Source of the DNA: Cupriavidus necator
GTDB taxonomy: Bacteria > Pseudomonadota > Gammaproteobacteria > Burkholderiales > Burkholderiaceae
Assembly (NCBI RefSeq): GCF_016127575.1
Contig: NZ_CP066018.1
Span: forward strand, 3,390,001 to 3,422,000
DNA length: 32,000 bases
Direction of reading: 5' to 3'
Made by a program: the position numbers and the translations under genes. Shown piece after piece: positions 1,484 to 28,497 of the stretch; position 1 is the stretch's first letter; every line of letters starts with the position of its first letter. Below the pieces are notes generated by a model. The model was given only the letters and a program-made list of their open reading frames with translations, made no database searches and was not told the DNA's origin.

Positions 1484-1963
1484 TCAGCTCCGTGACGCGC
1501 CGGCGGGGCGCGCCGGGGCCTTCGCGCCTGGGGTAGGGACGGCCATCAGGCGGCCGACGTTGTCGAACATTTCGCGCGCCGATTCCGCAAAGGGCGCGTA
1601 GCCGCCTCCCTCCACCATGACCCTTTGCTGGTAGTCCTGCCAGGCTTCGGTCGACTCGCGCAGGTGCTCCATGAAGGCCGAGGCCATTTCTATGTAAAGA
1701 CCGCCAATGTCGCGTGCATGTGCGGCGTTGCGCTCGACCTGCGCGGCCAGAATCTGAGCGGGCAGGCCATGGAAGGCGTTCCAGTCTGGCGCATCGTTGA
1801 CGCGGGCGAGCGCCTGCCGGGTGCCTTTTATGTCCTCGTCCAGGGCCTTGAGGCGGAGCCTGAGCAACATCTGGCGCGATTCTTCCCAGCGCAGCCAAAT
1901 GCGCAGGGCGGACTGCTCGGCGCAGCGCGCGAGTTCGAAGGCGGGATCGGTCTGGTCTGGCAT
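1484..1963 (-). CDS. Helical phasin-like protein (function uncertain)
   Basis: Track ORF 1484..2152 trimmed to the internal ATG at 1963, which has GGAG ~7 nt upstream. The 63 upstream codons are Arg/Pro-rich. The 159-aa product is Ala/Glu/Arg/Gln-rich and its stop lies 4 nt before the phaB start. The phasin call rests on composition and position, not on a diagnostic motif. Confidence 0.5.
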   Translation of the reverse strand: MPDQTDPAFELARCAEQSALRIWLRWEESRQMLLRLRLKALDEDIKGTRQALARVNDAPDWNAFHGLPAQILAAQVERNAAHARDIGGLYIEMASAFMEHLRESTEAWQDYQQRVMVEGGGYAPFAESAREMFDNVGRLMAVPTPGAKAPARPAGASRS

Positions 1964-2046
1964 GGAGGAACTCCTATAGTCAAGCGGCTGGCCTGCCCCG
2001 GGGCGCGCAGGTCTGGATAAGTCTAGGAGGGCAACCTTGGCGGGGC

Positions 2047-2060
2047 TTGACGTATCGCAA
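2047..2060. promoter_or_regulatory. Degenerate FNR/FixK-like box TTGAC-GTAT-CGCAA (reads TTGCG-ATAC-GTCAA in phasin orientation)
   Basis: 7/10 match to TTGAT-N4-ATCAA. Centre is ~90 bp upstream of the phasin ATG (1963). It has the same TTGCG-N4-RTCAA form as the box upstream of groEL. Confidence 0.3.
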
Positions 2061-2238
2061 GGAGTGCGCAATGCGTCGGGCGGCGCGCGGCATCGCCAAG
2101 CCGCGCCGGGTTCGTCAGAGCGCAGGGGTCGCATGGCCGGCGGCCTGCGCATTGTGGCCGGACACCCGGAGAGGCAAGGCCGATCAGGAGCCGGGACCGA
2201 GCTGTCCTGCTACATGCCGCGAGCAAACGGGCTTTCCT

Positions 2239-2252
2239 TTGATCCATCCCAA
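2239..2252. promoter_or_regulatory. FNR-like half-degenerate box TTGAT-CCAT-CCCAA
   Basis: Perfect left half-site and 3/5 right half-site. Centre is ~80 bp upstream of the GTG start of the nitroreductase-PRTase-BON operon. With one flanking T it matches the 6201-6215 site at 14 of 15 positions. Confidence 0.4.
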
Positions 2253-2324
2253 ATGGCAGGGCCGGCTTGCCGCCTACGTTAATCCCAGGGGGGCGTTGCC
2301 GACCCCATCGATCCGGAGCACGAC

Positions 2325-2930
2325 GTGACACATCCCATCGTTTTATCCGAAGCCGGCGCGGAATACCTGAAGCTGCCGCCACCGCAGACCGAAGGCGGCA
2401 TGCCGCTGCTGACGGCGCTGCTGCAGCGCCGCTCGACCCGACACTTTGCTGCGCGGAACCTGGATGACACACTGCTGTCGTCCCTGCTGTGGGCGGCTTT
2501 CGGCGTCAACCGCCCGGGCACCGGCCTGCGCACTGCGCCCTCGACCCGCAACTGGCAGGAAATCGACCTGTACGCGGCGCTGCGCGACGGACTGTACGTG
2601 CTTGAACCGGCGGACTGGCGCCTTCGGCTGGTCGTCGGCGCAGACCTGCGCGCGGCGACCGGCCTGCAGGACTATGTTGCCGAGGCGCCATTGAATCTCG
2701 TCTATGTCAGCCGGCTCTCCAGGCTCGATGAGACCGACAAGCCGCTGCGCCAGTTCTATACCGCGCTGGATACGGGGCATATCAGCCAGAACGTTTACCT
2801 CTTCTGCGCCGCGTCCGGGCTGGCCACGGTGGCGCGCGGGCTGCTGGACCGCCGCGCGCTGGCCACTGCCATGCGGCTGGCGCCCGACCAGCGCGTGATC
2901 CTGGCCCAGAGCGTGGGCTATCCGGCGTAA
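2325..2930 (+). CDS. SagB/ThcOx-type nitroreductase-family protein
   Basis: 201 aa. GTG start with GGAG 6 nt upstream. Motifs: LLQRRSTRHF, LLWAAFGVNR, RTAPS, GLYVLEP. C-terminal FMN-fold region: DTGHISQNVYLFCAASGLATV. Paralogue of the 8597..9262 gene. Confidence 0.8.
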   Translation: MTHPIVLSEAGAEYLKLPPPQTEGGMPLLTALLQRRSTRHFAARNLDDTLLSSLLWAAFGVNRPGTGLRTAPSTRNWQEIDLYAALRDGLYVLEPADWRLRLVVGADLRAATGLQDYVAEAPLNLVYVSRLSRLDETDKPLRQFYTALDTGHISQNVYLFCAASGLATVARGLLDRRALATAMRLAPDQRVILAQSVGYPA

Positions 2931-2962
2931 GCCGCCACCCAGGCAGCCAAAGGAGGGGGGTA

Positions 2963-3589
2963 ATGCCATTCATTGACAGGGCCGATGCCGCCGCACAACT
3001 GGCGCGTGCGCTTGCTGGCCACGCAGGAAAACGGCCGCTGGTGCTGGCCGTGCCCCGCGGTGCGGTGCCGATGGGCGCCATCATTGCCGATGCGCTCGGC
3101 GCGGACCTTGACGTCGTGCTCGTGCGCAAACTCGGCGCACCGGGCAACCCGGAGTTCGCCATCGGCGCCGTAGACGAGAGCGGGTGGACCTATCTTACGC
3201 CCTATGCCGCCGCGGCAGGCGCCGACAGCGAATACATCGACCGCGAGCGCGCGGCCCAGCTTGAGGTGCTGCGGCGCCGCCGCGCCGCCTACACGCCGGG
3301 CCGGGAACCGGTCCGCGCCACCGGTCGACAGGTCATCATCGTGGACGACGGCCTGGCGACCGGGGCCTCGATGATCGCCGCGCTGCACGCCATCCGCGAG
3401 CAGAAGCCCGCGCGGCTCGTCTGCGCGGTGCCGGTGGCGCCGCCGCGGACGCTGGAGCTGTTGCAGCCCTATGTCGACGAGGTGGTATGCCTGGAGACGC
3501 CGGCCGGCTTCCGGGCAGTGGGGGAGTTCTACCGCGACTTCTCGCAGGTCGAGGATGCGGAGGTCGTGGCTTGCCTGAAAGGGCGGTAA
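2963..3589 (+). CDS. Phosphoribosyltransferase-family protein
   Basis: 208 aa. Strong RBS AAGGAGGGGGG. PRPP-binding loop VIIVDDGLATGAS. N-terminal RGAVPMG pattern typical of stand-alone putative PRTases found in stress clusters. Confidence 0.85.
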   Translation: MPFIDRADAAAQLARALAGHAGKRPLVLAVPRGAVPMGAIIADALGADLDVVLVRKLGAPGNPEFAIGAVDESGWTYLTPYAAAAGADSEYIDRERAAQLEVLRRRRAAYTPGREPVRATGRQVIIVDDGLATGASMIAALHAIREQKPARLVCAVPVAPPRTLELLQPYVDEVVCLETPAGFRAVGEFYRDFSQVEDAEVVACLKGR

Positions 3590-3614
3590 AGACACGCACA
3601 AGCGGGGGGCACCC

Positions 3615-4271
3615 ATGAAGGGCGACAGGCAGCTGCAGCAGGACGTGACCGAGGCGCTGATCTGGGATCCTGCGGTCCATGGCAACGAGATCGGGGTCCA
3701 GGTCCAGGACGGCGTCGTCACGCTGACCGGGCACCTTGGAACCTTTGCCGAGAAGTACTCGGCGGAAGCGGCCGTCAGGCGCATTCCCGGCGTGCGGGCG
3801 CTGGCCGTGGAACTGGACGTTCACCTGCCCGACGATGCGCGCCGCACCGATGCCGACATTGCCCGGGCCGCTGCCAACGTGCTGTCCTGGGATGCGACGG
3901 TGCCGGCCGACCGTATCCGGATCCTGGTCGAACACGGCGTGGTGACCCTGAGCGGCGATGTCGACTGGTACTACCAGCGCACCGCCGCCGAGCACGCCGT
4001 GGCCGGACTGTTCGGCGTGGTCGGGGTCACCAATGCGCTCGCCATCCGGCCTCGTGCCGACAAGCAGGACGTGGCGGCACGGATCCAGGCGGCCATCGCA
4101 CGCCAGGCTGCCAGCGACGCCGACCAGGTAACCGTGACGGTGAGGGATGGCGCGGTGACGCTGACCGGCACTCTGCGCACGCTGGCCGAGCGCGAGGCGG
4201 CATTCGAAGCGGCCTGGTCTGCACCGGGCGTCAGCGCGGTCGTCAACCAGATCGAAGTCAGGCCCGGCTAG
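3615..4271 (+). CDS. BON-domain protein (OsmY-like, three BON repeats)
   Basis: 218 aa with three repeats of the BON pattern (VQVQDGVVTLTGHL, ILVEHGVVTLSGDV, VTVRDGAVTLTGTL). Each repeat is followed by a ...AE.AA..IPGV..V.N.I.V-type segment. Confidence 0.85.
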   Translation: MKGDRQLQQDVTEALIWDPAVHGNEIGVQVQDGVVTLTGHLGTFAEKYSAEAAVRRIPGVRALAVELDVHLPDDARRTDADIARAAANVLSWDATVPADRIRILVEHGVVTLSGDVDWYYQRTAAEHAVAGLFGVVGVTNALAIRPRADKQDVAARIQAAIARQAASDADQVTVTVRDGAVTLTGTLRTLAEREAAFEAAWSAPGVSAVVNQIEVRPG

Positions 4272-4290
4272 CTCAGGCCTGCACCGTTGC

Positions 4291-5928
4291 TCAGTATTCT
4301 TCGCCGAACATCGACGACCCCGTGCGCATGCCGGCATCGCCCTGGCCGGCGGGGCTGCGCTGAATCGCGATCATGCAGTCCGTCGTCAGCAGCAGGGAGG
4401 CGATCGACACGGCATTTTGCAGGGCCGTGCGTACCACCTTGACGGGGTCGATCACGCCGAGTTCCAGCATGTCGCCATAGCGCTCGGTGCCGGCGTCGTA
4501 GCCGAGCGTGCCCGAGCCGACGCATACCTGGTGCACCACTGCGTCGGCATCCGCACCGGCGTTGGCGGCGATCTGCCGCATCGGCGCGGCCAGTGCCGCG
4601 TGGACGATGTGGCCGCCGGCGGCCTGCTCGGCGTTCGGTGCCTGCCAGGCTTCGAGGGCAGCGCGGGCGCGCAGCAGCGCAACGCCGCCGCCGGCGACGA
4701 TGCCTTCGTCCACCGCGGCGCGGGTGGCGTGCAAAGCATCCTGGAAGCGGTTCTTGCGCTCGTGCAGCGCGCTCTCGGTGGCCGCACCCACCTTGATCAC
4801 AGCCACGCCGCCGGCCAGCCGGGCCAGGCGCCGCTGCAGCGCCTCACGCTCATAGTCCGAGCGCACCTCGTCCAGGCGCAGGCGCAGGGCGGCAATGCGC
4901 TCGGCCACGCGCGGGCGTTCGTCACCGGAGCCGATCAGGGTGGTGGTGTCCTTGTTGACCTCCACGCGGCGGGCTTCGCCAAGCTGTTCCAGCGTGACGT
5001 GCTCGAGCGAGATGCCGGCCTGCGGTGAGACCACCGTGGCGCCGGTCAGCGCGGCCAGGTCGCCCAGCTGCTCGGTGCGCGAGTCGCCGAAACCCGGTGA
5101 CTTGACTGCGCAGCTCTTCAGCGCGCCGCGCAGGTTGTTCACCACGAGCGTGGCCAGGGCCTCGCCCTCCACATCGTTGGCGATGACCAGCAAGGGCCGG
5201 CCAGCGTGGCTCACGGCCTCAAGGACCGGCAGCAGTTGCGCGATGGCGGCAATGTTCGCGTCGCACAGCAGCACCAGCGGCGAATCCAGCACGACGGCAC
5301 GGCTCTCGTTGGTCGCGAACAAGGGCGAGAGGTAGCCGCGATCGATCAGCGCGCCGTCGGCGATGTCGAGTGCGTCGTCCAGCTTGGAGCCATCCTCCAC
5401 GCTGATTGCGCCATCCTTGCCGACCCGCTCGACAGCCTGCGCCACCAGCGTGCCGACGGTCTGGTCGCCGCTGGCCGAGATGGTGGCGATCTGGCGCATC
5501 TCGCCGGTACTGCTGCAGGGCCGGGCGCTTTCCAGCAAGGCGCTGGCGACCAGCTTGCCGGCGGCCTCGATGCCGCGCTTGAGTTGCATGGGGTCGTGGC
5601 CGGCTTCGACGTATTTCACGCCCTCAGCCACGATCGCGTGGGCCAGCGTGGTCGCAGTGGTGGTGCCATCGCCAGCGATCTCGCTGGTGCGCACCGCGGC
5701 CTCGCAGAGCAGGCGGGCGCCCATGTCGGCGAACGGATTGGCCAGCGTCACCGACTTCGCCACGACCACGCCGGAATTGGCGACCAGCGGCACCATGTCG
5801 GGCCGCTCCACGATCACGTTGCGGCCTCCCGGGCCCAGCGTGACCTTGACCGCGTGGGCCAGTTGTTCCACGCCGCTCAGCATCATGCGGCGCGCGCCTT
5901 GGTGGAAGATAAGTGTTCTGGCAGGCAT
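4291..5928 (-). CDS. groEL: Chaperonin GroEL paralogue (no adjacent groES)
   Basis: Track ORF trimmed to ATG 5928 (GGAG upstream). 545 aa with AGDGTTTAT, VKVTLGPGGRNV and GGGVALL motifs. The C-terminus ends ...GMRTGSSMFGEEY instead of a GGM repeat tail. Confidence 0.9.
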   Translation of the reverse strand: MPARTLIFHQGARRMMLSGVEQLAHAVKVTLGPGGRNVIVERPDMVPLVANSGVVVAKSVTLANPFADMGARLLCEAAVRTSEIAGDGTTTATTLAHAIVAEGVKYVEAGHDPMQLKRGIEAAGKLVASALLESARPCSSTGEMRQIATISASGDQTVGTLVAQAVERVGKDGAISVEDGSKLDDALDIADGALIDRGYLSPLFATNESRAVVLDSPLVLLCDANIAAIAQLLPVLEAVSHAGRPLLVIANDVEGEALATLVVNNLRGALKSCAVKSPGFGDSRTEQLGDLAALTGATVVSPQAGISLEHVTLEQLGEARRVEVNKDTTTLIGSGDERPRVAERIAALRLRLDEVRSDYEREALQRRLARLAGGVAVIKVGAATESALHERKNRFQDALHATRAAVDEGIVAGGGVALLRARAALEAWQAPNAEQAAGGHIVHAALAAPMRQIAANAGADADAVVHQVCVGSGTLGYDAGTERYGDMLELGVIDPVKVVRTALQNAVSIASLLLTTDCMIAIQRSPAGQGDAGMRTGSSMFGEEY

Positions 5929-5997
5929 GAAAAACTCCGCATTGACAATCAGTGGGTCGGGCTTGCTACTACGGTAGTTGCCGTGCAGGTCCGCACG

Positions 5998-6011
5998 TTG
6001 ATGCAACGCAA
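5998..6011. promoter_or_regulatory. Degenerate FNR/FixK-like box TTGAT-GCAA-CGCAA (TTGCG-TTGC-ATCAA in groEL orientation)
   Basis: 8/10 match. Centre is ~77 bp upstream of the groEL ATG 5928. Confidence 0.35.
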
Positions 6012-6201
6012 GCCCGGGGTGGCGCCCGCCGCCTGTGACAGGCGCGCTTCATTCCGGCCGGTCGCTGTCCAGTACGGGCACGGGATGCCCGGGCTCCAGC
6101 GGCTCCAGCGCCTTGGTCTCATCCAGGTGGAAGAGGGGCATTGCGCGACCTGCTACGGCGGGTCATGTAGGCGGTGTCGCCTGCAGGTGTCTGGTCATTG
6201 T

Positions 6202-6215
6202 TTGATCCAGCCCAA
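6202..6215. promoter_or_regulatory. FNR-like half-degenerate box TTGAT-CCAG-CCCAA
   Basis: Lies in the 518-bp divergent groEL/hydrolase intergenic region. With the preceding T it matches the 2238-2252 site at 14 of 15 positions. Confidence 0.35.
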
Positions 6216-6446
6216 GTCGATGGCCGCGCAGGCGCATAGCTTTAACAGTGTGAACGCGCCCCGTCGTCAGCACGACTAAGGAAATGCAACTGGCGCGGGA
6301 CATCGGCAACCCCATCCAACATGCCTGCGGGGAGCGCTGACGATGGACCTCGGCATCGCCGAGACCGAACTGAACGTGCACTGGCACAGGACGCGATGGT
6401 GGCGCGGCCGTTGGCAAGGACAGGAAGAGGGGGGAAGGGAAGTCTC

Positions 6447-7115
6447 ATGGAGCACATCACCATCGAACAGGTGCGGATCCATATCGGCGACATCGCGCTG
6501 CCAGGCGACCTTACCCTGCCGGAAGCGGCATCCGGCCTGGTCCTGTTCGCACATGGCAGCGGCAGTTCGCGCTACAGCGTGCGCAGCCGCGGGGTCGCAG
6601 CGACGCTGAATCGGGTGGGCCTGGGCACGCTACTGTTTGACCTGTTGGCGCCGGACGAGGACGCCGGGAGGTCGAAGCGATTCGACATCGCCCTGCTCGG
6701 GGAACGCCTCAAAGCTGCCACGGTCACGGTCGCGCACCTGACGCGCGATCGCCACCTGCGGCTCGGCTACTTCGCCGCCAGTATGGGGGCTGCCGCGGCC
6801 ATCCGTGCCGCCGCTGAGCCGCCGCCGCGCATGCGGATCGACGCGGTGGTGGCGCGCGGAGGCCGCGTGGACCTGGCAGGCCACGAGGCGCTGCGCCAAC
6901 TGCAGTCCCCGACGCTGATGATCGTAGGCGAAGCGGATCCGGTGGTGCTGAAGCTCAACGCGCGCGCCACCGCATGGATGCAATGCGAGAAGCGGCTGGA
7001 GGTGATTCCCGGCGCTACTCACCTGTTCGAGCAGCCGGGTGCGCTGGAACAGGTCGGCGAGCTCGCCGGAAAATGGTTCTGCCAGCATTTTGCAGCGGCT
7101 GGCGGGAACTTGTAG
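6447..7115 (+). CDS. Alpha/beta hydrolase, dienelactone-hydrolase-like
   Basis: Track ORF 6321..7115 trimmed to ATG 6447 (RBS GGAAGGGA). 222 aa. Motifs: LVLFAHGSGSSRYS, nucleophile-elbow-like YFAASMGAAAA, and C-terminal IPGATHLF histidine motif. Confidence 0.75.
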   Translation: MEHITIEQVRIHIGDIALPGDLTLPEAASGLVLFAHGSGSSRYSVRSRGVAATLNRVGLGTLLFDLLAPDEDAGRSKRFDIALLGERLKAATVTVAHLTRDRHLRLGYFAASMGAAAAIRAAAEPPPRMRIDAVVARGGRVDLAGHEALRQLQSPTLMIVGEADPVVLKLNARATAWMQCEKRLEVIPGATHLFEQPGALEQVGELAGKWFCQHFAAAGGNL

Positions 7116-7178: not shown

Positions 7179-7511
7179 ATGAACGATACTCGCGCCGCGC
7201 TCTTGCCGCACAAGGAAGCACTAGCCCGTGATGCCAACACGCTGTTGGCGGATGTACAGGCATTGTTGCGGGATGTTGCCGACGAAGCCGGCGTGGAGAC
7301 CGCGCAGGCACGCGCGCAGCTGAGCGCACGCCTGCACGCGCTCCAGGGCCGCCTCGCCGAGCAACGCCAGGCGGCGCGCATGCGTGTCTCGCAATGGGCC
7401 GACACCACGGATCGCTACGTCCACGCACATCCCTGGGAGAGCATGGGCTCCGTCGCCGCTGTCGCGGCCGTGGCTGGCGCCCTGGTCGCGCTGGCCGTCA
7501 CCCGCCGTTAG
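7179..7511 (+). CDS. DUF883 / ElaB-YqjD-like membrane-anchored stress protein
   Basis: 110 aa. RBS AAAGGAGAA. Long helical N-terminal part, then HPWESMGSVAAVAAVAGALVALAVTRR, the typical C-terminal tail anchor of the ElaB/YqjD/YgaM family. Confidence 0.8.
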   Translation: MNDTRAALLPHKEALARDANTLLADVQALLRDVADEAGVETAQARAQLSARLHALQGRLAEQRQAARMRVSQWADTTDRYVHAHPWESMGSVAAVAAVAGALVALAVTRR

Positions 7512-8596: not shown

Positions 8597-9262
8597 CTAG
8601 ACCGGCGCGCTGTCATGCGGAGCCGGACGCCCGATGGTCTGGGACAGGATCGGTTCCTCGTCCTCGTTCAGCGACATATGCTCGGCCAGCTGGCGCCGGT
8701 TAAGCCAGCCGCGCACCACCGCGCCCAGCCCGGCCGAGGCGCAGTAGAGATAGGCGTTCTGGACCATGGCGCCGGCCGCGGCGGCAGCGAAGGTCTCGTG
8801 CAGCTTGGGCGGGACGTCCTGCATCCGGCCATGGTTGGCGACGTAGACCAGGTCCAGCGGCGCCATGCCGACGAAGTCCTGGTAGCCGGTCATGCTGCGC
8901 ACGTCTGCCGCGCGCTTCAGCACCAGGCAATGGTGGATCGGGTCGTAGCGGTAGAGGCCGGCGGGCAGCGCCGCGTAGACGTCGATCACCGCCTCGCCGT
9001 GCGGCGAAGGGGCTGTGCGGCCGCCGCCCTGGGAGCGGTTGACGCCCGCCGCGGCCCACAGCAGCTCGCTCAGCTGCTGCAGTGGCAGCGGCTGCTCGTC
9101 GAACTCGCGGGTGCTCATGCGCTGCCACAGCGCCCCCATCAGCGGCAGGCCATTGGTGCGGTCCGGCTGTGGCAGGGCGATGACCCGCTCGCTCGTGCCG
9201 GAGGCGGGGCGTGGCAGCAGGTCCTTGATGGGCTGGTAGGGGATGCGCTTCAGTTCGTCCAT
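8597..9262 (-). CDS. SagB/ThcOx-type nitroreductase-family protein (paralogue of 2325..2930)
   Basis: Motifs: WQRMSTREF, LLWAAAGVNR, GGRTAPSPHG, GLYRYDPIHH, AGAMVQNAYLYCASAGLGAVV. Start is uncertain: ATG 9262 is chosen, with ATG 9274 and the track start 9313 as alternatives. Confidence 0.8.
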   Translation of the reverse strand: MDELKRIPYQPIKDLLPRPASGTSERVIALPQPDRTNGLPLMGALWQRMSTREFDEQPLPLQQLSELLWAAAGVNRSQGGGRTAPSPHGEAVIDVYAALPAGLYRYDPIHHCLVLKRAADVRSMTGYQDFVGMAPLDLVYVANHGRMQDVPPKLHETFAAAAAGAMVQNAYLYCASAGLGAVVRGWLNRRQLAEHMSLNEDEEPILSQTIGRPAPHDSAPV

Positions 9263-9444
9263 GGGAGCTCGCATTTGTTGCAAAGAGCGGCGCGAGCGCT
9301 CTGCGCATGGCACCGGTATGGACGAATGTAGGCGCTGCCCCCGGCCGTGGATTGCGCTCCGTCAAGCAGCGTCGATGGGGCCTTCCCTGGTGTGAAAGCA
9401 AGGGGTGCTGGCGCTGCTTTAGATGGCGGCGCCGAGCTCTGGCG

Positions 9445-11016
9445 TCAGCCGCAGCCGGGTGCGGCGGGGCCCGTAACGCTGCCCGGCGAGGCGACGCAGG
9501 CACGCTCGGCTTCGGTCAGCGGCTCCTGGACACGCATCTGCCACGCCAGCACGCCGTCGTCGGCATCCGACAGGTCCCCGCCCGCCCGGGCACGCGCGGC
9601 GATGCGGGCGCGCAGCGTCTCAGGGCTGGCTTCGCAGGTGACGATGGCGAAGGGCACGCCAAGGCGGCGCGCCTGGGCAGCAAAGCGTTCGCGCTCGGCG
9701 CGGACCAGGAAAGTCGCGTCGGCAAGCATCGGGAACCCGGCGCGGCAGCCGAGCCGGCAGACCGCGAGCAGGCGTCGGTAGGTCCGTGCCGTTTCGCTCG
9801 CGGCATACCAGCCACCCGCGGGCATCACGCCGCGGTGCAGGCCCTTGCGTACCGCGTCGGAGCGTACGCGTACCATCGACCCGGCCTCGCTCATCTGTGC
9901 CGCAACCGTGGACTTGCCGCTGCCGGACAGGCCATGCATCAGCACCATCGGCCCGCGACGGCGGCTGAGGCATCGCCATGCCAGCGCAAGCAGCCTGCCT
10001 GCCTCGGCCTGCGCCGGCGCCATGGACGCGCCCGCGGCGTGCTTCTGGCAGCCGCGCTCCAGCAGCACGCGCGCGCGCACCAGGGCCCGCATGGCGAGAT
10101 AGAAGGGCAACACGGCCAGCGCGCCGTAGTCTCCCGACTGCTCCAGGTAGCCGTTGAGCAGCCGGTAGGCCAGCGCCGGTCGGCCATGGTGCAGCAGGTC
10201 TATGACCGGGAAGGCCAGGTCGCTGATGGTGTCGGTCCAGCGCAGGGCGGCGTCGAACTCCAGGCAGTCGAATGGGGTCGGCACGCCGTTCAGCAGCACG
10301 ATGTTGCCCAAATGCAGGTCGCCATGGCACTCGCGTACATGGCCGTTGCGCAGGCGTGCCCGGAACGCATCCGTCAGCCGGGTGGCCTCGCTGCGCGCCC
10401 GCAGGGCCACGCGGCTGGCCAGGTGCGTGGCCGACGTCAGCCGGCCAATGCCGCCCAGGCACTCCGCAAGCGTCGCGTCGATGCGGGCCGGCGTGCCAAA
10501 GCTATCGGAAGGGGCGGCAGGGGGCTGCGCCTGGTGAAAGGATGCAATGCTGCGCGCCAGCGCATCGATATGGCCCGGCTCCAGCCGGTCCGCAACGATT
10601 CTTGCGCTGAGCAGGTCTTGCTGGTCGAAGCGCCGCATCCGGACCGCATGCTCGATCGGTATGCCGCCGCCACCGATGCGCACCGAGCCGGGCGTGGGGC
10701 CCGCCAGGATCGGCACCACATCCAGATACAGGGCAGGTGCGAACCGGCGGTTCAGGCGTAGTTCGGTCTCACAGTCGTCGCGGCGTGCCTGCGCGGTGGA
10801 GAAGTCGACAAAGTCGAACCGCACCGGCTTGCGCACCTTGTAAGCAAAGTCCCCGGCCAGGAAGACACGGGAGATATGCGTCTCGATGACCTGTACTGCC
10901 GGCGCCGGGTGGGGGTAGGCGTCCGGCTGCTGCAAGGCGGCCATCAACGCCGCGTCGTCCCATTGACTTTCCATGTCCCTTGCCGCCTGCGCCCTTGCGC
11001 TGTTGTGAACTGCCAC
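9445..11016 (-). CDS. Bifunctional APH-like phosphotransferase / P-loop (AAA_33-like) kinase fusion protein
   Basis: 523 aa. The N-terminal ~330 aa form a protein-kinase-like fold (IETHISRVFLAGDFAYKVRKP, catalytic HGDLHLGNIV). The C-terminus carries Walker A GLSGSGKST. The track start 11016 is a GTG; ATG 10974 is an alternative. Confidence 0.8.
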   Translation of the reverse strand: MAVHNSARAQAARDMESQWDDAALMAALQQPDAYPHPAPAVQVIETHISRVFLAGDFAYKVRKPVRFDFVDFSTAQARRDDCETELRLNRRFAPALYLDVVPILAGPTPGSVRIGGGGIPIEHAVRMRRFDQQDLLSARIVADRLEPGHIDALARSIASFHQAQPPAAPSDSFGTPARIDATLAECLGGIGRLTSATHLASRVALRARSEATRLTDAFRARLRNGHVRECHGDLHLGNIVLLNGVPTPFDCLEFDAALRWTDTISDLAFPVIDLLHHGRPALAYRLLNGYLEQSGDYGALAVLPFYLAMRALVRARVLLERGCQKHAAGASMAPAQAEAGRLLALAWRCLSRRRGPMVLMHGLSGSGKSTVAAQMSEAGSMVRVRSDAVRKGLHRGVMPAGGWYAASETARTYRRLLAVCRLGCRAGFPMLADATFLVRAERERFAAQARRLGVPFAIVTCEASPETLRARIAARARAGGDLSDADDGVLAWQMRVQEPLTEAERACVASPGSVTGPAAPGCG

Positions 11017-11071: not shown

Positions 11072-11554
11072 CTATGCCGTCACGTCGGCCAGATCCTGCC
11101 CCAGGATGCCCGCCGCGCTACAGAGTACGCCCACGATAGCCAGCAGTGCGCGCCACGGGTGGCTCAGCAGCGCCTCCACTTGCTCGCTGCGGCTCTCGCC
11201 AGACAGGCACCAGATGCAGAAGTGCTCGCAGTTGTTGGTAAGAAGGCGGTAATCGTCCTCTCCAAGCCGCGCAGTCGCGCGCCGTACGATCTCCGCCTCG
11301 ACGTACCTCGCTTGCGTGGCCGGCTCGACGCGAAAGCCGTAGCCGCCGGCAAAGCCGGCGAGGGTGGTCTTTTCGACGGGGCCGCAACGCAGGAAACCTT
11401 TGAACCCGACATAGTGCACCACCTCGCCGTTGCCGACATAAATGCCGTGGTGGACATAACCACGGCGGTCCGTCTTCAGATGCGCGCCAAGAGGAATGTC
11501 CGCGGAGATTGCCGCAAGGCGCTGTGCGTGTCCGATGTGGTGATCGTCGCTCAT
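11072..11554 (-). CDS. LRAT / NlpC-P60-like (H-RAS-like suppressor family) protein with C-terminal TM helix
   Basis: 160 aa. RBS AAGGGGAA. Catalytic His context HHGIYVGNGEVVH, catalytic Cys in NCEHF, and hydrophobic tail ALLAIVGVLCSAAGIL. Confidence 0.75.
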   Translation of the reverse strand: MSDDHHIGHAQRLAAISADIPLGAHLKTDRRGYVHHGIYVGNGEVVHYVGFKGFLRCGPVEKTTLAGFAGGYGFRVEPATQARYVEAEIVRRATARLGEDDYRLLTNNCEHFCIWCLSGESRSEQVEALLSHPWRALLAIVGVLCSAAGILGQDLADVTA

Positions 11555-11875: not shown

Positions 11876-11889
11876 TTGACAGGCATCAA
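11876..11889. promoter_or_regulatory. Near-consensus FNR/FixK box TTGAC-AGGC-ATCAA
   Basis: 9/10 match to TTGAT-N4-ATCAA. It lies in the 448-bp divergent region, with centre ~120 bp upstream of the lipoprotein ATG 12003 and ~330 bp from the LRAT ATG. Confidence 0.55.
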
Positions 11890-12521: not shown

Positions 12522-14822
12522 TCACTCCGTGGGCGCATCTTCGCGCAGCGCATGGAACAGCTCGTCCTCCTGCGCGCAGTGCAGCCGCAATACGGCCTCG
12601 AGCCCGTAGAGCAGCCGCTGGTACTCCCTGACCCTGCCGGCGTCTGGCCCATCCGGCGGTGAGTCGTCCGCCATCCGCTGCAGTAGCCGGATCACCCGGA
12701 AGATCTCGCGGTGCATCGCGCTCATCGCCGCCAGCGGATCCTCGCCTCCGACCAGCAGCGCGAGTTGCGGATAGAGCTGCGCGTCATCGTGCTGTTCGTG
12801 GGGCAAAAGTGTTCCGCTGAGGGATGCGCACAAGCGGCGCAGTTCCGTGCCCGCGGCGTGGCCAGGCATGGCTGGCAACCTGTCCGCGAGGCTGCGGATC
12901 TGTTCCATCAGCGGCGCCAGCGCGGCGTGCTCCTGGTTCAGGCGCTCGGCGTCGGCCGTGGACAGGCGTTCCGCCGGCACCGACGGGTCGGCGCGCAGGG
13001 CGCGCAGCGCATTGGCAATGACCAGCACATCGATGACCTCCTGCAGCATGGCGCCGGCCAGTGGCGGCAGGTAGCCGAACGCGGCGACCGCCATCGCGAC
13101 GAACGACAGGCCCATGCCGGCCATGGCGCTTTGCACGGCCAGCCGGCGCGACCGGCGGGCGATGCGCACCGCGTCCACCAGCCGGTCAAGCCGGTCCACC
13201 AGCAGCACGACATCCGCGGCTTCCGACGATGCCGCGGCACCTCGTGCGCCCATGGCCACGCCGACGTCCGCGGCGGCCAGCGCCGGTGCATCGTTCACGC
13301 CGTCGCCCACCATCAGCACAGTGCCGTCGTGGCGCGCCGCCTCGATCGCGGCAAGCTTCTGCGAGGGGGTGAGGTTGGCATGGACCTCGGTCACGCCCAG
13401 CATCGCGCCGACGGTCTCGGCGACGTCGAGCCGGTCTCCCGTGAGCATGGCCAGGCGCCGTATGCCCGCCTTGCGCAGCAAGCGCAACGCGCGCGGGGTG
13501 TCCATGCGAATCAGGTCCACGAACTGCAGTGCCCCAACCAGCACGCCGTCGACGGTGACCAGCGAGACCGAGGCGCCTTCGAAGGCCGCGCGCTGCAACA
13601 TGGCCTGGCACCACGGTGGCCCGGCATCGCCGCCGCCGGCAAAGGCGGGCGATCCCACCGCCACCACGTGCTCGCCAACCCGCCCGGCAATGCCAGCACC
13701 GGCGGTCTCGGTCACGCCTGACGGCAGGTCCAGGGCCAGGCCTCGCTCGCGCGCCGCGGTCGTGATGGCTTCGGCGACAACATGCCCGGAGGCCTGGGAC
13801 AGCGAAGCGGCGACGCGCAGCACGTCGGGCGCCGGCCATCCGGGCGCGCTCTCGATGGCCGCCAGGCGGGCCCTTCCGCCCGTCAGCGTCCCGGTCTTGT
13901 CGAAGAAGAGGATGCTCGCCTGCGACAACCTTTCAAGCGCGCCGCCGCCCTTGACCAGCACGCCGCGCCCGGCGCAACGCGACACCCCGGACACAATCGC
14001 CACCGGAACGGCCAGGATCAACGGACAAGGGGTGGCGACCACCAGCACCGCCAGCGCCCGCGCGAGTTCACCACTGGCAAGCCAGGCAAGCCCGGCGACG
14101 AGCAGGGTGACAGGCACCAGCCACAGTGCATAACGGTCGGCCAACCGCGCCGCGGGCGGGCGCTCCGCGCGGGCGGTGCGCACCAGCCTGGCGATGCCGG
14201 CGAAGGTGCTGTCTGCCGCGGTGGTCGCTGCCACCATCTCGAACGGGGTGCCGGCGTTCAGCACACTGCTGCGCACGGTCTCGCCAGGGAGTCGCTGCCG
14301 TGGCAGCGACTCGCCAGTCAGGGCAGATTCGTCCAGCGTCGCCTGGCCCAGCAATGCGCCGTCCACGGGTACGACTTCGCCATGCCGGACCAACAGGCGA
14401 TCCCCCGGACTGACCACATCGAGGGAAACCGCGCGCCATTCTCCGTCCTCGAAGCGGTTGGCGGACTGCGGGGCGCGGCTGAGCAGGGCGGACATCTCCC
14501 GCTCGGAACGGGCCTGCGCATAGTTCTCAATGGCCCTGCCGCTCTCGATCATCAGGGCCAGTACGGCAGCCGCGAGGAATTCGCCAAGCGCCAGCGCCAG
14601 CCCGATCGCCAGCAGCGCCAGGACATCGACGCCCGCTTCCTTCCGGCGCAGCGACCGCACGATGGCGACGATCAGCGCGCCGGCGACGACCAGCGCGCCA
14701 ACCGCCCAAGCGAGCCTCGCGGCGAGCGCTTCGCCGAAGGCAAAAAGCAGCAAGCCAGCGCCCAGCGTGCCGGCCGCGACTGGCAGCAAGCCGAGGTCAA
14801 ACTTGCGAAACCCGATGTGCAT
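12522..14822 (-). CDS. P1B-5-type heavy-metal P-type ATPase with C-terminal hemerythrin (HHE) domain
   Basis: [17 protein letters not shown], and transmembrane TPCP (VVATPCPLILAVP) instead of CPC. There is no N-terminal metal-binding domain. The last ~150 aa carry His/Glu hemerythrin motifs (NQEHAAL, LPHEQHDD, MHREIF, LHCAQEDELFH). Start placed at ATG 14822 (CAGGGGA upstream); the track start 14933 is a GTG without an RBS. Confidence 0.85.
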   Translation of the reverse strand: MHIGFRKFDLGLLPVAAGTLGAGLLLFAFGEALAARLAWAVGALVVAGALIVAIVRSLRRKEAGVDVLALLAIGLALALGEFLAAAVLALMIESGRAIENYAQARSEREMSALLSRAPQSANRFEDGEWRAVSLDVVSPGDRLLVRHGEVVPVDGALLGQATLDESALTGESLPRQRLPGETVRSSVLNAGTPFEMVAATTAADSTFAGIARLVRTARAERPPAARLADRYALWLVPVTLLVAGLAWLASGELARALAVLVVATPCPLILAVPVAIVSGVSRCAGRGVLVKGGGALERLSQASILFFDKTGTLTGGRARLAAIESAPGWPAPDVLRVAASLSQASGHVVAEAITTAARERGLALDLPSGVTETAGAGIAGRVGEHVVAVGSPAFAGGGDAGPPWCQAMLQRAAFEGASVSLVTVDGVLVGALQFVDLIRMDTPRALRLLRKAGIRRLAMLTGDRLDVAETVGAMLGVTEVHANLTPSQKLAAIEAARHDGTVLMVGDGVNDAPALAAADVGVAMGARGAAASSEAADVVLLVDRLDRLVDAVRIARRSRRLAVQSAMAGMGLSFVAMAVAAFGYLPPLAGAMLQEVIDVLVIANALRALRADPSVPAERLSTADAERLNQEHAALAPLMEQIRSLADRLPAMPGHAAGTELRRLCASLSGTLLPHEQHDDAQLYPQLALLVGGEDPLAAMSAMHREIFRVIRLLQRMADDSPPDGPDAGRVREYQRLLYGLEAVLRLHCAQEDELFHALREDAPTE

Positions 14823-15246
14823 GGCGAACCCGATCCCCTGCGTAACTGGCGCCGGTTGCTGGGATACTCCCGCTGATGCCTTCAGGCGATCGCAGATCCT
14901 GCCGCGCTGGCGGCTGCGCAATCCCGGCTGCACGCCGAATCAGGCACTGTGTAATGGTGATGTTAGTCCAACAGGCACCGGGCCGATAATAGCCTCGGCC
15001 GCAGGCAGGGCGCGCCAGCCAGCCCTGGAGATAGTCGATGGCTGCAGGGGCCGCGGTTCGCGGCGCCACGGAGATGATTCGGCACGGCGCGGACCCGCAG
15101 TGGCTGTCGGCGGTACTGCCGTATTCGCTCACTCCTTGATGCACGCGGCGATTACGGCGCATTTTCGGTTCAAATTGCGCTTTGGCCGGTGCCGCCCTAT
15201 ATATTTGGGGGGCGAGAAGCACTCTCAGACAATCATCGTCCATTCC

Positions 15247-16971
15247 ATGAGCAACCCTTTGGCGCCCGCGGGCAAGGTGCAGCCTTCGTCCGAACGTTCT
15301 CACTCCCTTGCCATGGCGATTGGCAGTGTGACGGTCGTTCTCGTCCTCGCGGGGGGATGCTTCTTGATGGCTACCGTCGAATGGTATCGGCAGTTCCTGG
15401 CGCCGTTGGTGCTCTTGACGGGCGCAGGCATCGGGCTCGCCGTGGGACTTTACTGGAACCGGTTGAGGAAGCTTACAGGGAGTAGTGATATCCAACGCGT
15501 GGCGGATAGCGAAGCCCAGTTGGCGGGGATCATCCGATCTTCGATGGAAGCGATCATCACCGTGGACGGTGACCAGCGCGTCGTACTGTTCAATCCCATG
15601 GCAGAAACGCTATTCGCCTGGCCGGCCGAACTTGCAATCGGGCGCTCCCTGAGCGACTTCATTCCCCACCGCTTTCGGGCCGCCCATGCAGAGCATGTGC
15701 GCCGGTTTGGGATCACGGGCGTTTCGGACCGCGAGATGGGACTCCAACGGGCGCTGTGCGCCATGCGTCGGGACGGAAGCGAGTTCCCTATCGAAGCATC
15801 CATTTCACAGATCTCTGTCGGCGAGGCCAAGTTATACACTGTGATGCTGCGCGATATCACCGAACGCGTGCGTGCTGAGGAAGCCCTGCACCGAAGCCTT
15901 CAGCTTGTGAAGGAAAGCGAGGCGCGATTGGCGGGAATTATCCGCTCCTCCATGGAAGCGATCATCACCGTGGACAATGAACAACGCGTAGTGCTGTTCA
16001 ACCCAATGGCGGAGACGTTGTTCGCCTGGCCCGCCGAACTCGCGATTGGCCGCCCCCTCGGCGACTTCATTCCCGAACGCTACCGGGCCGCTCATGAGGA
16101 GCACGTGCGTCGGTTTGGGATCACGGGCGTATCGGATCGTCAGATGGGACGTCAACGGGCACTCTACGCTCTGCGTCGTGACGGCACTGAATTCCCTATC
16201 GAAGCATCCATCTCGCAAACGGCCCACGAAGGCACGAAGCTATATACCGTGATGCTGCGTGATATCACGGAGCGGGCACGCGCGGAGGCGGCCCTGCGCC
16301 GCTCACGGGAAGAACTGCAACAGCTTTCAGATGGGATACTCGCTGCCCGCGAGGAGGAGAGGCGCCGCATTGCACGCGAGCTGCACGATGACCTGGGCCA
16401 GCGCCTGAGCGCGCTTAAGATGGACATGGCTATGCTCGGCGCGGACGTCGATGAGGGCCGTGACACAGCAGGACTGCTAGACGAGATTGGTGCCATAAAC
16501 GGCGTCATCGACAATACTGTTGCCTCGGTCCGACGCATTGCCAGTGACCTACGGCCGGCCTTGCTGGACGAGTTGGGAATGATTCCTGCCATTGAGTGGT
16601 TGGCCGATGATTTTGCCAACCGGTACGGATTGGCGGTGAGCGTGGACGGTGCCGAGGCTGACGTCCCCGCGCAGACGGCAATCGCCATGTTCCGCATTGT
16701 CCAGGAGGCATTGAGCAATGTCGTCCGGCATGCCGACGCGACCACCGTGCATATTCAGCTCACCCAGTCAGAGGGCCAACTTGTGTTGCGGGTGCAAGAC
16801 AATGGGGTGGGCTGGGACAAGGTCTCCTCCGCAAGCGGGCCACGCAAATCGCTGGGACTCCTTGGCATCCGGGAGCGGGCACGCCTTCTGGGTGGCAGCT
16901 TCACCATCGACAGCACTCCCGGCAAGGGCTTTTGCCTAATCGTGCAAATTCCCCACGAAAGGGTGGCCTGA
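15247..16971 (+). CDS. Membrane-anchored sensor histidine kinase: 2 TM, tandem FixL-like PAS, HisKA_3, HATPase_c
   Basis: The 813-aa track ORF is trimmed to ATG 15247, because the upstream part is antisense to the ATPase gene. Two hydrophobic helices with a ~7-aa loop. H-box ELHDDLGQRLSALK is NarX/DevS-type HisKA_3. N/G boxes: EALSNVVRHA, DNGVGW, GLLGIRERA. No RBS is obvious, so the start is approximate. Confidence 0.85.
   Translation: MSNPLAPAGKVQPSSERSHSLAMAIGSVTVVLVLAGGCFLMATVEWYRQFLAPLVLLTGAGIGLAVGLYWNRLRKLTGSSDIQRVADSEAQLAGIIRSSMEAIITVDGDQRVVLFNPMAETLFAWPAELAIGRSLSDFIPHRFRAAHAEHVRRFGITGVSDREMGLQRALCAMRRDGSEFPIEASISQISVGEAKLYTVMLRDITERVRAEEALHRSLQLVKESEARLAGIIRSSMEAIITVDNEQRVVLFNPMAETLFAWPAELAIGRPLGDFIPERYRAAHEEHVRRFGITGVSDRQMGRQRALYALRRDGTEFPIEASISQTAHEGTKLYTVMLRDITERARAEAALRRSREELQQLSDGILAAREEERRRIARELHDDLGQRLSALKMDMAMLGADVDEGRDTAGLLDEIGAINGVIDNTVASVRRIASDLRPALLDELGMIPAIEWLADDFANRYGLAVSVDGAEADVPAQTAIAMFRIVQEALSNVVRHADATTVHIQLTQSEGQLVLRVQDNGVGWDKVSSASGPRKSLGLLGIRERARLLGGSFTIDSTPGKGFCLIVQIPHERVA
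15511..16308 (+). repeat. Tandem in-frame duplication (period 408 bp) encoding the two PAS modules
   Basis: Copy 1 starts ~15511 and copy 2 ~15919. By my hand alignment 104 of 125 aligned residues are identical (83%). Identical 20-24 nt runs include atggaagcgatcatcaccgtggac, cggtttgggatcacgggcgt and ttccctatcgaagcatccat. Confidence 0.85.
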
Positions 16972-17036
16972 TGCGACATGCCTCATGATTGGGGATGGCA
17001 TCGCAGTTGTCCGGAATCAAGCCCCCATGTGCCGGG

Positions 17037-17105
17037 GTAATTCTGGCGATTGTAATTGCGAACGCCGCGACCGGCTTCATTCAGGACGGCAAGGCGGAAA
17101 AAAGC
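17037..17105 (+). pseudogene. Short remnant of a P2-type (CtpF/Ca-Mg-like) P-type ATPase, TM2 region
   Basis: VILAIVIANAATGFIQDGKAEKS matches the very conserved P2-ATPase block ..V..NA.vGFiQE.kAE.al. The similarity is lost on both sides. Only ~23 codons, so low confidence. Confidence 0.35.
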
Positions 17106-17281
17106 CACGGACCGTTTCGGCACCGGCGACGCTACGCCGAATGCTTTGCAGACACTCACTCCATTCTGCTGCTGCAGCGGAACTGCCGTCGCAAGAGCGA
17201 CGGCCGGACGGCAAGGGGCTGGCAGGTTTGCGGTCTGACGGGATTAGTCCGCACGAGGGCCAAACCTTACGGCTAGACCCA

Positions 17282-17842
17282 TCATCCGCCTGGCGCCATC
17301 TTTCCACCCATGCCCGGACCCATCCCCGGCCCCATGCCCGGACCCATGCCCGGACCCATGCCCATGCCCGGGCCCATGCCTTGGTCGTTGGCCATCGTCT
17401 GCATCATTTCCTGCATGAACGCCATGTGACTACCCGCCATGTCTTGGCACATCTGCATTTGATTTGATGGGGCGTTTCCCTTGGCGACTCTCTTGCCAGG
17501 AGCCATACGAGCAGGGCCGCCCATTTTCATCATGTCCTTTTGCATGATGGCCATTGCATCTTGCATGACCTGATGGCGTTCAGCCAAGAGGGCCTGACGC
17601 TCCTCCGGCGTTTTGGCACGCGAAAGCCGCTCTCTGATGGCACGCAGGTGGGCAACCTGGGCGTCCAGCTTTGCATCGCTGGAAACTCCGGGAGTTACGA
17701 CCGGAGCCTTATCTTGCCGCTTTTCAGGATGGTGCTGCTCATGCTCAATGCCGGTAGCCGGCGACGCCGGGAAAGCTGCTGGCGCCCACGCTAGCACGGC
17801 GGCCGCAGTGATAAGGGTAGAGAGGCGATGGTTGGTGGACAT
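17282..17842 (-). CDS. Secreted Met-rich protein with C-terminal (GPGM)n repeat; possible periplasmic Cu(I)/metal-binding or CpxP/Spy/ZraP-like protein
   Basis: 186 aa. RBS AGGAGGA. Signal peptide LITAAAVLAWAPAAFPA|SP. I counted 23 Met in the C-terminal ~105 residues. Tail: GMGPGMGMGPGMGPGMGPGMGPGMGGKM. The function is inferred from composition only. Confidence 0.7.
   Translation of the reverse strand: MSTNHRLSTLITAAAVLAWAPAAFPASPATGIEHEQHHPEKRQDKAPVVTPGVSSDAKLDAQVAHLRAIRERLSRAKTPEERQALLAERHQVMQDAMAIMQKDMMKMGGPARMAPGKRVAKGNAPSNQMQMCQDMAGSHMAFMQEMMQTMANDQGMGPGMGMGPGMGPGMGPGMGPGMGGKMAPGG
17309..17380 (-). repeat. In-frame 12-nt coding microsatellite (CATGCCCGGNCC on the + strand = GPGM), five units plus two 6-nt half-units
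   Basis: Units at 17309-20, 17321-32, 17333-44, 17345-56 and 17363-74. Half-units catgcc at 17357-62 and 17375-80. Confidence 0.85.
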
Positions 17843-17907
17843 GGGAGATCCTCCTATGAAAACATGATGGTTCCTAGTCCAAGGTATGCGGCGGTCAGGG
17901 ATTTGAG

Positions 17908-17921
17908 TTGATTGGGATCAA
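17908..17921. promoter_or_regulatory. Perfect FNR/FixK consensus box TTGAT-TGGG-ATCAA
   Basis: 10/10 match. Centre is 72.5 bp upstream of the Met-rich protein ATG (17842). This fits a class II (-41.5) activator site with a ~30-nt leader. Confidence 0.75.
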
Positions 17922-17964
17922 CGAAGCGATGGGTGTACCGGGTGTTCAGTCCCATCGATGTGCT

Positions 17965-17998
17965 GGTCTGCGCAGGAGCAATCTGCGCAGACCATTTT
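17965..17998 (+). terminator. Intrinsic-terminator-like hairpin: 11-bp perfect stem GGTCTGCGCAG / CTGCGCAGACC, 7-nt loop, then ATTTTG
   Basis: Stem 17965-75 and 17983-93, followed by ATTTTGC on the + strand only. There is no + strand gene upstream, so its role is unclear. Confidence 0.35.
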
Positions 17999-18214
17999 GC
18001 GGATGCCCTCAGCAGCAATGCTCCGGTTGCCAGGAAACGGTCTGGCCAGGAACAAATCCGGCGGCGGAATACCTGGAAATCGACTATGAGGGCAGCAAGT
18101 CAGCGGGAACCGTATAAAGCGCCACTTCGCCCGTCGGCGCCAGCCCTGCGGCGCATTGTTTGTTCCTCTGCCACGCCTCTATCCAACTGCACTTCGCTGC
18201 CAGTGCCGGCGTGC

Positions 18215-18658
18215 TTACGCCCGTTGCATGCTTGATTTGGCGCGCTCCGCGACGTCGAACACGAGCATGCCAGCCACCATTGCTGCCACAAAGCCAATGG
18301 CCTTCGGATAGCCAGCGCCCAGGGCAACCAGCGCGGGACCAGGGCAGAAGCCGGCCAGACCCCAGCCGACGCCGAAGGCGGCGCTGCCCAGTACCAGCCG
18401 CAGCGTTACGGCCGTGCTGGCCGGCAGTTGCACAGGCAGCCCCAGGAAGGAGTGTTTGCGGTGTTTGGCGATGAGGAAGGCGAGCGAGCCAATGGCAATG
18501 GCACCGGCCATCACAAAAGCGAGGGACGGGTCCCAGGTTCCTGCAAGGTCAAGAAAGCCCAGCACCTTGGCCGGGTTGGCCATGCCGGAGACCATCAGGC
18601 CAATGCCAAATAGCAGGCCTGCGACGAGTGCAGTCATGGCGGTCATATCAGCCTCCAA
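18215..18658 (-). CDS. YeeE/YedE-family (DUF395) half-size sulfur-compound transporter subunit
   Basis: 147 aa, four hydrophobic helices, GFCPGPALVALG motif. Overlaps the upstream paralogue by 11 nt. Confidence 0.8.
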   Translation of the reverse strand: MEADMTAMTALVAGLLFGIGLMVSGMANPAKVLGFLDLAGTWDPSLAFVMAGAIAIGSLAFLIAKHRKHSFLGLPVQLPASTAVTLRLVLGSAAFGVGWGLAGFCPGPALVALGAGYPKAIGFVAAMVAGMLVFDVAERAKSSMQRA

Positions 18659-19414: not shown

Positions 19415-19437
19415 AGGTCGTTTACATTTTGCTTGTT

Positions 19438-19478
19438 AATATTATATTGAAAAATAGAATGTATGTGAATAGAATGTA
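19438..19478. promoter_or_regulatory. AT-rich divergent promoter/operator candidates: palindrome AATAT-T-ATATT and direct repeat AATAGAATGTA x2
   Basis: Palindrome at 19438-19448. 11-nt direct repeats at 19453-63 and 19468-78 (15-bp period). These lie in the only 84 bp between bigR and blh, a segment that is strikingly AT-rich for this genome. Confidence 0.4.
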
Positions 19479-19498
19479 CTGCATCCAAGGAGGCGAGC

Positions 19499-20359: not shown

Positions 20360-20379
20360 GGCAGGTTGTTTTCAATTGT

Positions 20380-21990: not shown

Positions 21991-22020
21991 GGACTTGGAG
22001 TCATATCGCCATTCTTGGTA

Positions 22021-22287: not shown

Positions 22288-22323
22288 GGCAGCCTCCGGG
22301 TGCAAGGAAGATGACGGTTGAAT

Positions 22324-28474: not shown

Positions 28475-28497
28475 TGCCGGAAACCTCCCCCACGATA

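Follow-up and report, generated by a model that had tools for sequence, protein, structure and literature searches.

The stretch of DNA considered here, 32,000 nucleotides of Cupriavidus necator (contig NZ_CP066018.1; hereafter the window), carries a cluster of stress-related genes in which a 15-nucleotide sequence occurs twice. The first copy, TTTGATCCATCCCAA, lies at positions 2238-2252 (site 1) and the second, TTTGATCCAGCCCAA, at 6201-6215 (site 2). Both are on the plus strand and are identical at 14 of 15 positions, and a new search of the window located them exactly where an original prediction, made from the letters of the sequence, had placed them; no further copy was found in the 32 kb, even with up to three mismatches. 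Genes were assigned from gene calls based on GC content at third codon positions (GC3) and from Pfam matches. These assignments bear out that site 1 stands upstream of a plus-strand operon (2325-4271) encoding a nitroreductase (2325-2930), a phosphoribosyltransferase (2963-3589) and a triple-BON protein (3615-4271). On the other side of site 1 lie, on the minus strand, a hypothetical gene (1484-1963) and an SDR gene (733-1479). Site 2 is located in the spacer (5929-6446) between groEL (4291-5928, minus strand) and the intact plus-strand genes of an alpha/beta hydrolase (6447-7115) and of a DUF883 (ElaB-like) protein (7179-7511), both downstream of it. The placement of the two copies in promoter regions of a stress cluster is therefore supported by these gene assignments.

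Both copies contain a perfect TTGAT, that is, the left half-site of an FNR box, and have the FNR/CRP-family look that had been ascribed to them. The TTGA core separates the FNR half-site from the CRP half-site, GTGA. The FNR-type box proper comprises positions 2239-2252 (TTGAT-CCAT-CCCAA) at site 1 and 6202-6215 at site 2; its right half, CCCAA, is at the correct N4 spacing and keeps the CAA. It is common for one half of a natural FNR site to be weak. The resemblance between the two copies had initially been given a chance expectation of ~0.02, which is too optimistic, as the look-elsewhere effect was left out. A match of at least 14/15 was obtained in 3.6% of 2000 dinucleotide shuffles when only the two regions of sites 1 and 2 were compared; when any pair of the window's 18 intergenic regions was allowed, at least one such match appeared in 73% of shuffles (mean 1.8). 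The real window sequence holds five distinct intergenic pairs at this level, the site 1/site 2 pair and four others that are not motif-like. Pairwise identity was thus rejected as evidence for function, being no higher than chance in these shuffles, and the reality of the pair had to be judged on other evidence. We consider the pair to be real because both copies match the FNR consensus, lie at a fixed distance from a -10 hexamer and are strictly conserved at orthologous positions, as described below.

Sites 1 and 2 are members of a family of boxes. The pattern TTGAY-N4-NNCAA occurs at 10 distinct sites in the 4.46 kb of intergenic DNA of the window vs 1 in ~27.5 kb of coding DNA, and TTGATNNNNNNCAA at no more than one mismatch gives 25 matches vs 11.2 expected, a count reached in 0/100 shuffles. 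In an unbiased scan of every 4-mer palindromic dyad with spacers of 0-12 (3328 dyads), TTGA-N6-TCAA was the most intergenic-enriched palindrome (4 vs 0). The 10 intergenic boxes include four perfect TTGA-N6-TCAA dyads, three boxes with CGCAA right halves (at 2047, 5998 and 9352) and the two CCCAA boxes. With 10 intergenic boxes of the same family in the window, the special regulator that had been suggested for the promoters of sites 1 and 2 is not supported. The regions of sites 1 and 2 contain two boxes each, one per divergent transcription unit.

The boxes were then related to putative promoter elements. At 8/10 of the window boxes, one side and not the other carries a TAnnnT hexamer at a distance of 20-22 nt (mostly 21); the background is 0.9% per side, and wherever a gene could be assigned the side in question is the one facing the gene. 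The predicted -10 element of site 1 is TACGTT (2275-2280, plus strand), 22 nt after the box, and reads TACGGT in relatives; that of site 2 is TAGCTT (6237-6242, plus strand), 21 nt after the box, with a spacing unchanged in all relatives, including the one (locus L005) in which the hexamer is TAACTT. On the minus strand, box TTGACGTATCGCAA (2047-2060) has TAGACT 21 nt off at 2020-2025 and would serve the divergent hypothetical gene 1484-1963, whereas box TTGATGCAACGCAA (5998-6011), with TACCGT 21 nt off at 5971-5976, would be groEL's own FNR-type promoter. Box TTGACGGAGCGCAA (9352-9365, read on the minus strand) is followed after 21 nt by TACATT and is assigned to a second nitroreductase gene (8597-9313, minus strand). 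Box TTGACAGGCATCAA (11876-11889, plus strand), followed after 21 nt by TACCTT, faces the next plus-strand gene. The perfect palindrome TTGATTGGGATCAA (17908-17921, minus strand), also followed after 21 nt by TACCTT, would serve the gene of a secreted Met/His-rich protein (17282-17842, minus strand). A second perfect palindrome, TTGATTTCAATCAA (26189-26202, minus strand), is upstream of the gene of a YHS-domain P-type ATPase (23623-26106) and has only a CAGAAT-like -10 element. The two remaining boxes, TTGACGCGAATCAA (27631-27644) and TTGATGCTAGGCAA (27660-27673, minus reading), adjoin each other between an archaeal-type S-adenosylmethionine (SAM) synthetase gene and a formate/nitrite-transporter fragment.

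No sigma-70 promoter with -35 and -10 elements was found in 1900-6500. Class II FNR-dependent promoters carry a TTGAT-N4-ATCAA site centred at -41.5, over the -35 position, together with a -10 element but no -35 element. A 14-bp box, 21 nt and a -10 hexamer place the box centre at ~-40.5 to -41.5: at site 1 transcription would start at ~2287, with the box centred at ~-41.5, and at site 2 at ~6249, with the centre at ~-40.5. A sigma-54 reading of the TGGCAG...TTGC sequence that follows site 1 was rejected, as the GG-to-GC spacing, counted by eye, is 12 where 10 is needed, and as the TTGC is lost in C. oxalaticus. A search of the whole window against Rfam matched no RNA family.

Comparison with related replicons extended these observations. 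The window is 93% identical to megaplasmid p1 of Cupriavidus sp. KK10, 95% to p1 of C. necator C39 and 90% to the megaplasmid of C. oxalaticus X32, and a nitroreductase-based search added C. pinatubonensis and a replicon that bears the label Ralstonia pickettii RAL3 chromosome 3. The loci fetched are numbered: L001 and L086 are from KK10 (L086 from p1), L002 from C. oxalaticus, L004 from RAL3 and L084 from P-10 pMTS1. The box-to--10 geometry recurs in these islands (8/10 boxes in L086, 8/9 in L001, 7/8 in L084 and 10/11 in L004, 33/38 in total); among the 8 boxes of a 150-kb control taken from the same megaplasmid it was seen once. The island loci hold 9 boxes in 24 kb, 10 in 49 kb and 11 in 32 kb, and three 50-kb stretches elsewhere on KK10 p1 contain 2, 1 and 5 boxes. 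The box at 2047-2060 is kept in L001-L004, and the groEL box at 5998-6011 has orthologues in L001, L002, L004 and L005.

Four related replicons keep site 1 at 15/15 positions against a flank identity of 82-97%, and five relatives keep site 2 at 15/15 against one of 57-78%. In C. pinatubonensis, site 2 is kept at 13/15 positions with flanks 42% identical, and the -10 hexamer is still 21 nt away; both changes convert CCCAA into CTTAA, while TTTGATCCAGC and the -10 region are fixed. We therefore read CCCAA as a weak half-site that is tolerated, and not as a recognition sequence of its own. The original prediction had itself raised the prospect that the 15-mer belongs to a dispersed repeat or lacks conservation. 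It is conserved at orthologous promoters, and the exact 15-mer is present in nine copies in the 1.46 Mb of fetched loci, all at the two orthologous positions; in addition, the core TTTGATCCA was not found in ~200 kb of other KK10 p1 DNA, and we conclude that the 15-mer is not a dispersed repeat. A repeat search of 17400-28500 gave short repeats at chance level only. Distant homologues of the nitroreductase from other beta- and gamma-proteobacteria have canonical upstream boxes, such as TTGATCCAGATCAA, at 8 of ~22 loci, and six of these eight loci show the same box-to--10 geometry.

The surroundings of site 2 needed separate consideration, the region having been described in the original prediction as a groEL/hydrolase divergent region. 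Comparison with the relatives identifies the 5929-6446 spacer as a deletion scar, with its predicted junction near 6137, and site 2 points towards the hydrolase and away from groEL. About 3-4 kb lie between groEL and site 2 in KK10, C. oxalaticus and RAL3; in KK10 this interval contains an erythromycin-esterase-like gene, the gene of an FtsH-like protease and a PolX-like gene. A C-terminal remnant of 28 aa of the esterase-like gene (6052-6141, minus strand) sits on the left side of the scar, with 22/28 residues identical to the intact KK10 gene (L001 10440-11753; E 1e-14). A 30-codon open reading frame (ORF) of high GC3 at 6052-6141 (minus strand), considered as a target of site 2, is this same remnant and was discarded. 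The scar also retains the 3' end of the PolX-like gene; in the relatives' layout, site 2 lies directly past the end of that gene and ahead of a small Zn-ribbon gene. The latter, which in the ancestral layout opened the unit behind site 2, has stayed intact in C. oxalaticus alone (L002 13489-13992), and in the window its C-terminal part survives as a frame-broken remnant (6285-6400, plus strand). The possibility that site 2 is the groEL promoter was rejected, as the groEL box at 5998-6011 has the correct geometry and the -10 element of site 2 faces the plus strand. From groEL's possession of its own box and from the layout of the spacer it follows that site 2 would serve the plus-strand unit. 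The scar at 6137 is accompanied by two gene fragments further on, the C-terminal fragment of an M41 (FtsH-type) protease (21540-22097, minus strand), which is longer in KK10, and a 70-aa piece of a formate/nitrite transporter (27931-28143, plus strand). The scar and the two fragments point to ongoing gene decay in the island.

We propose that, with good probability, both 15-mers are bound by a dimer of the CRP/FNR superfamily that is of FNR/Anr/FixK type and responds to oxygen, and that each lies in a class II promoter dependent on an activator. This reading draws on the observed sequence, enrichment, geometry and conservation of the boxes and on an FNR paralogue present in related islands, and extends from them to the points at which transcription starts, to the protein that binds and to the response to oxygen. 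In the proposed mechanism, the box TTGAT-N4-CCCAA would cover the location of the -35 element, which is absent there, and the TAnnnT -10 hexamer 21-22 nt past the box would set the box centre near -41. As oxygen falls, the active regulator would bind, chiefly through the perfect promoter-distal TTGAT half, with the degenerate proximal half contributing only its CAA, and the bound regulator would recruit RNA polymerase. The targets would be the nitroreductase-phosphoribosyltransferase-BON operon for site 1 and, for site 2, the unit made up of small-gene remnant, hydrolase gene and DUF883 gene. Sites 1 and 2 are two among at least 10 such predicted promoters in the window, and the wider island of related Cupriavidus/Ralstonia megaplasmids has about 25 of them. 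The pair is in all likelihood real and functional, yet composed of ordinary weak-half FNR-type class II boxes.

Several points weigh against this proposal. CCCAA matches only 3/5 positions of ATCAA and has lost the T of TCAA, which makes it weak by the E. coli consensus, and the central CCA(G/T) is invariant too, for which simple FNR contacts give no explanation. The box pattern and the -10 rule were picked after seeing the data, so that the P-values are descriptive only. The relatives are mostly close, C. pinatubonensis alone providing deep divergence. Finally, tblastn with E. coli FNR, an approximate query, detected no CRP/FNR gene in the window.

The same approximate query detected none in L001-L006 either; FNR homologues were found only in L084, L071 and L086. 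The island homologue, at 20769-21440 of L086 in KK10 p1 and at 4192-4857 of L084 in P-10 pMTS1, is ~41% identical to E. coli FNR. It has a CxxCx5C motif and a fourth Cys, an ETVSR recognition helix and the Pfam domains cNMP_binding and HTH_Crp_2. Its gene lies ~29 kb to the left in KK10 p1, and ~7 kb from the local copy of site 2 in P-10 pMTS1. This island FNR paralogue, or a chromosomal Fnr, would be the obvious candidate regulator. In KK10, the gene right after the FNR paralogue resembles, by eye, a thymidine/pyrimidine-nucleoside phosphorylase gene, and a box, TTGATGCAAAGCAA, occurs ~400 bp upstream of the paralogue. A literature search for a Cupriavidus FNR regulon turned up nothing specific.

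Other readings of the two sites were weighed against the FNR-type class II promoters proposed above. The CCCAA boxes might form a distinct sub-class, read by a dedicated CRP/FNR paralogue, such as the one encoded in the island, or by another cluster-specific regulator and responding to a separate signal or threshold. Of the 8 positions not fixed by the family pattern, sites 1 and 2 have 7 in common, a third box with GCCCAA, TTGATGTAGCCCAA, exists in KK10 (L086 13371-13384), and in all three boxes the strong half is distal and CCCAA proximal; moreover, the spacer CCA(G/T) is invariant in all relatives, whereas other orthologous boxes vary in their spacers, and several FNR paralogues are often present in Burkholderiales (PMC3721108; PMC3759049). 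Yet CTTAA replaces CCCAA in C. pinatubonensis with the rest of the promoter kept, the island FNR has a standard E--SR recognition helix, the canonical boxes show the same geometry, ATCAA boxes of canonical form are used by distant homologues of this nitroreductase, and three sites are too few for a class. We regard such a sub-class as unlikely, and it is just as doubtful that the boxes with a distal TTGAT and a proximal (G/T)CCCAA represent a weakened or paralogue-specific tier of an island FNR regulon; if they did, FNR paralogues or fractions of active FNR would switch subsets of dormancy-like genes at different oxygen levels. The KK10 box at L086 13371-13384 is followed after 21 nt by TACTCT and is upstream of the gene of a 177-aa protein (13472-14005) that has a hydrophobic N-terminus and is without a Pfam match.

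The shuffles that produce pairs of this quality in 73% of cases, together with the four other pairs in the window, would agree with a chance resemblance, in which unrelated GC-rich intergenic stretches share 14/15 positions and no function. Against chance stand the fit of both copies to the FNR consensus, the -10 hexamer that each has on the side of its gene at the distance shared by the family, and the invariance of both where the relatives' flanks have diverged, and we hold it to be very improbable. No more credible is common descent, in which the two copies would be what is left of a promoter duplication or of a small dispersed repeat or mobile element. The match does reach one base further than the 14-bp box (TTTGAT), with spacers that are almost the same, but the ungapped similarity ends at the 15-mer, no inverted repeats or target duplications were seen, and both the confinement of the exact 15-mer to two orthologous positions in the 1.46 Mb of loci and the absence of its core from ~200 kb of other KK10 p1 DNA speak against it. 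A last reading takes the 15-mers as sites of a DosR/NarL-type response regulator, the partner of a PAS-PAS-HisKA_3 kinase encoded in the window (14530-16971, plus strand). The DosR box is a 20-bp palindrome centred on GGGAC-N4-GTCCC. A gene content like that of the mycobacterial DosR regulon (nitroreductases, cation ATPase, chaperone) and the HisKA_3 kinase itself would suit this idea. However, neither site has a palindrome of the GGGAC-N4-GTCCC type and such dyads number 18 vs 22.9 expected in the window, which is no enrichment, and a response-regulator gene was not found in the window. A DosR/NarL-type site is accordingly considered extremely unlikely.

The FNR-type reading of the boxes has a close precedent. 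The lxa locus of Burkholderia cenocepacia, described by Sass et al. (2013, PMC3721108), is a 50-gene island induced at low oxygen, in which 17 intergenic points carry a motif with a 4-bp inverted repeat and a 6-bp spacer (TGA-N6-TCA). That report and PMC12071387, which also cites the Anr box of P. aeruginosa, attribute the motif to Anr/FixK-like regulators. By its box architecture and much of its gene content, the window island appears to behave like a counterpart of the lxa locus. Both are large islands on a secondary replicon of a Burkholderiaceae aerobe, both have many intergenic copies of a 4-bp inverted repeat that has TGA-N6-TCA in common with Anr/Fnr boxes (here 10 boxes in 32 kb, and 9-11 per related locus), and both include an Anr-like CRP regulator, which for the present island is seen in relatives. 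The characteristic lxa genes include those of multiple universal stress proteins (USPs), a nitroreductase, a cation ATPase, a Zn protease, polyhydroxyalkanoate (PHA) genes and the Anr-like regulator, and the functions shared with the present island are nitroreductase, cation-transporting ATPase, Zn protease, short-chain reductase, MBL-fold protein and sensor kinases. The window contributes two nitroreductases, two P-type ATPases, the M41 fragment, the SDR, an MBL-fold protein and the PAS kinase; no USP domain was detected among the window ORFs scanned. The present island differs from lxa in belonging to Cupriavidus (one relative being labelled Ralstonia) and in the degenerate right half of sites 1 and 2 (TTGA-N6-CCAA). 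The fixed 21-nt spacing between box and -10 is a feature of the present island that we did not find stated for lxa in the passages of PMC3721108 consulted.

Sites 1 and 2 also resemble the class II promoters of E. coli FNR and P. aeruginosa Anr in their perfect TTGAT, correct N4, lack of a -35 element and box centre at ~-40.5 to -41.5, and the candidate regulator has the four Cys and the E--SR helix; they differ in the CCCAA right half (3/5) and in having start sites that are deduced from the sequence. With the DosR regulon, the island shares Acg-type nitroreductases, a cation ATPase, a chaperone and a phosphoribosyltransferase, as well as a presumed low-oxygen role, a likeness noted for lxa in PMC3721108; in gene content the island is more loosely similar to this regulon than to lxa. 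The boxes here are FNR-type dyads, in contrast to the DosR palindrome, and as DosR-type dyads are not enriched the regulatory logic would be FNR-like and not DosR-like.

Several other genes of the window deserve mention. The second nitroreductase gene is preceded on the minus strand by the gene of a protein with APH and AAA_33 domains (9445-11016), in which an APH-type phosphotransferase domain is fused to an AAA_33/Zeta-toxin-like kinase domain and which is conserved in related islands, and by an LRAT-like gene (11072-11554). A P-type (E1-E2) cation ATPase (12522-14933, minus strand) ends in a C-terminal hemerythrin domain, an unusual fusion which suggests that the transporter may be linked to O2 or iron sensing. 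The long ORFs of this ATPase and of the PAS-PAS-HisKA_3 kinase overlap by ~400 bp, and their start codons are provisional. The secreted Met/His-rich protein 17282-17842, without a Pfam match, has an (MGPG)n tail, and its gene follows a perfect FNR palindrome in the class II arrangement; the protein resembles a periplasmic binder of metal (copper?) that may be under low-oxygen control. The SAM synthetase (26347-27531, minus strand; Pfam PF01941, E 1.7e-129) is of archaeal type although the megaplasmid is betaproteobacterial, and two FNR-type boxes lie upstream of its gene (27631-27673). The right part of the window also encodes PPK2. From ~15000 to 28000 the G+C content falls from ~0.68-0.72 to ~0.56-0.62, which suggests that segments differing in origin make up the island as a mosaic. 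The island also occurs in L004 (CP158805.1, labelled Ralstonia pickettii RAL3 chromosome 3), where the nitroreductase is 93% identical at the protein level and neither 15-mer is altered; its occurrence in a replicon with this label would reflect either intergenus movement or a misnamed strain.

Taken together, the two 15-mers reveal neither a new regulator nor a new type of site. What the analysis provides is a testable promoter map (box, 21 nt, TAnnnT) for a low-oxygen/dormancy-like island of Cupriavidus megaplasmids, which may be used for the annotation of such islands and for picking promoters for oxygen-responsive expression in Cupriavidus. The map would carry into another genus the picture drawn from the lxa locus, in which an FNR/Anr-type box stands ahead of nearly every transcription unit.

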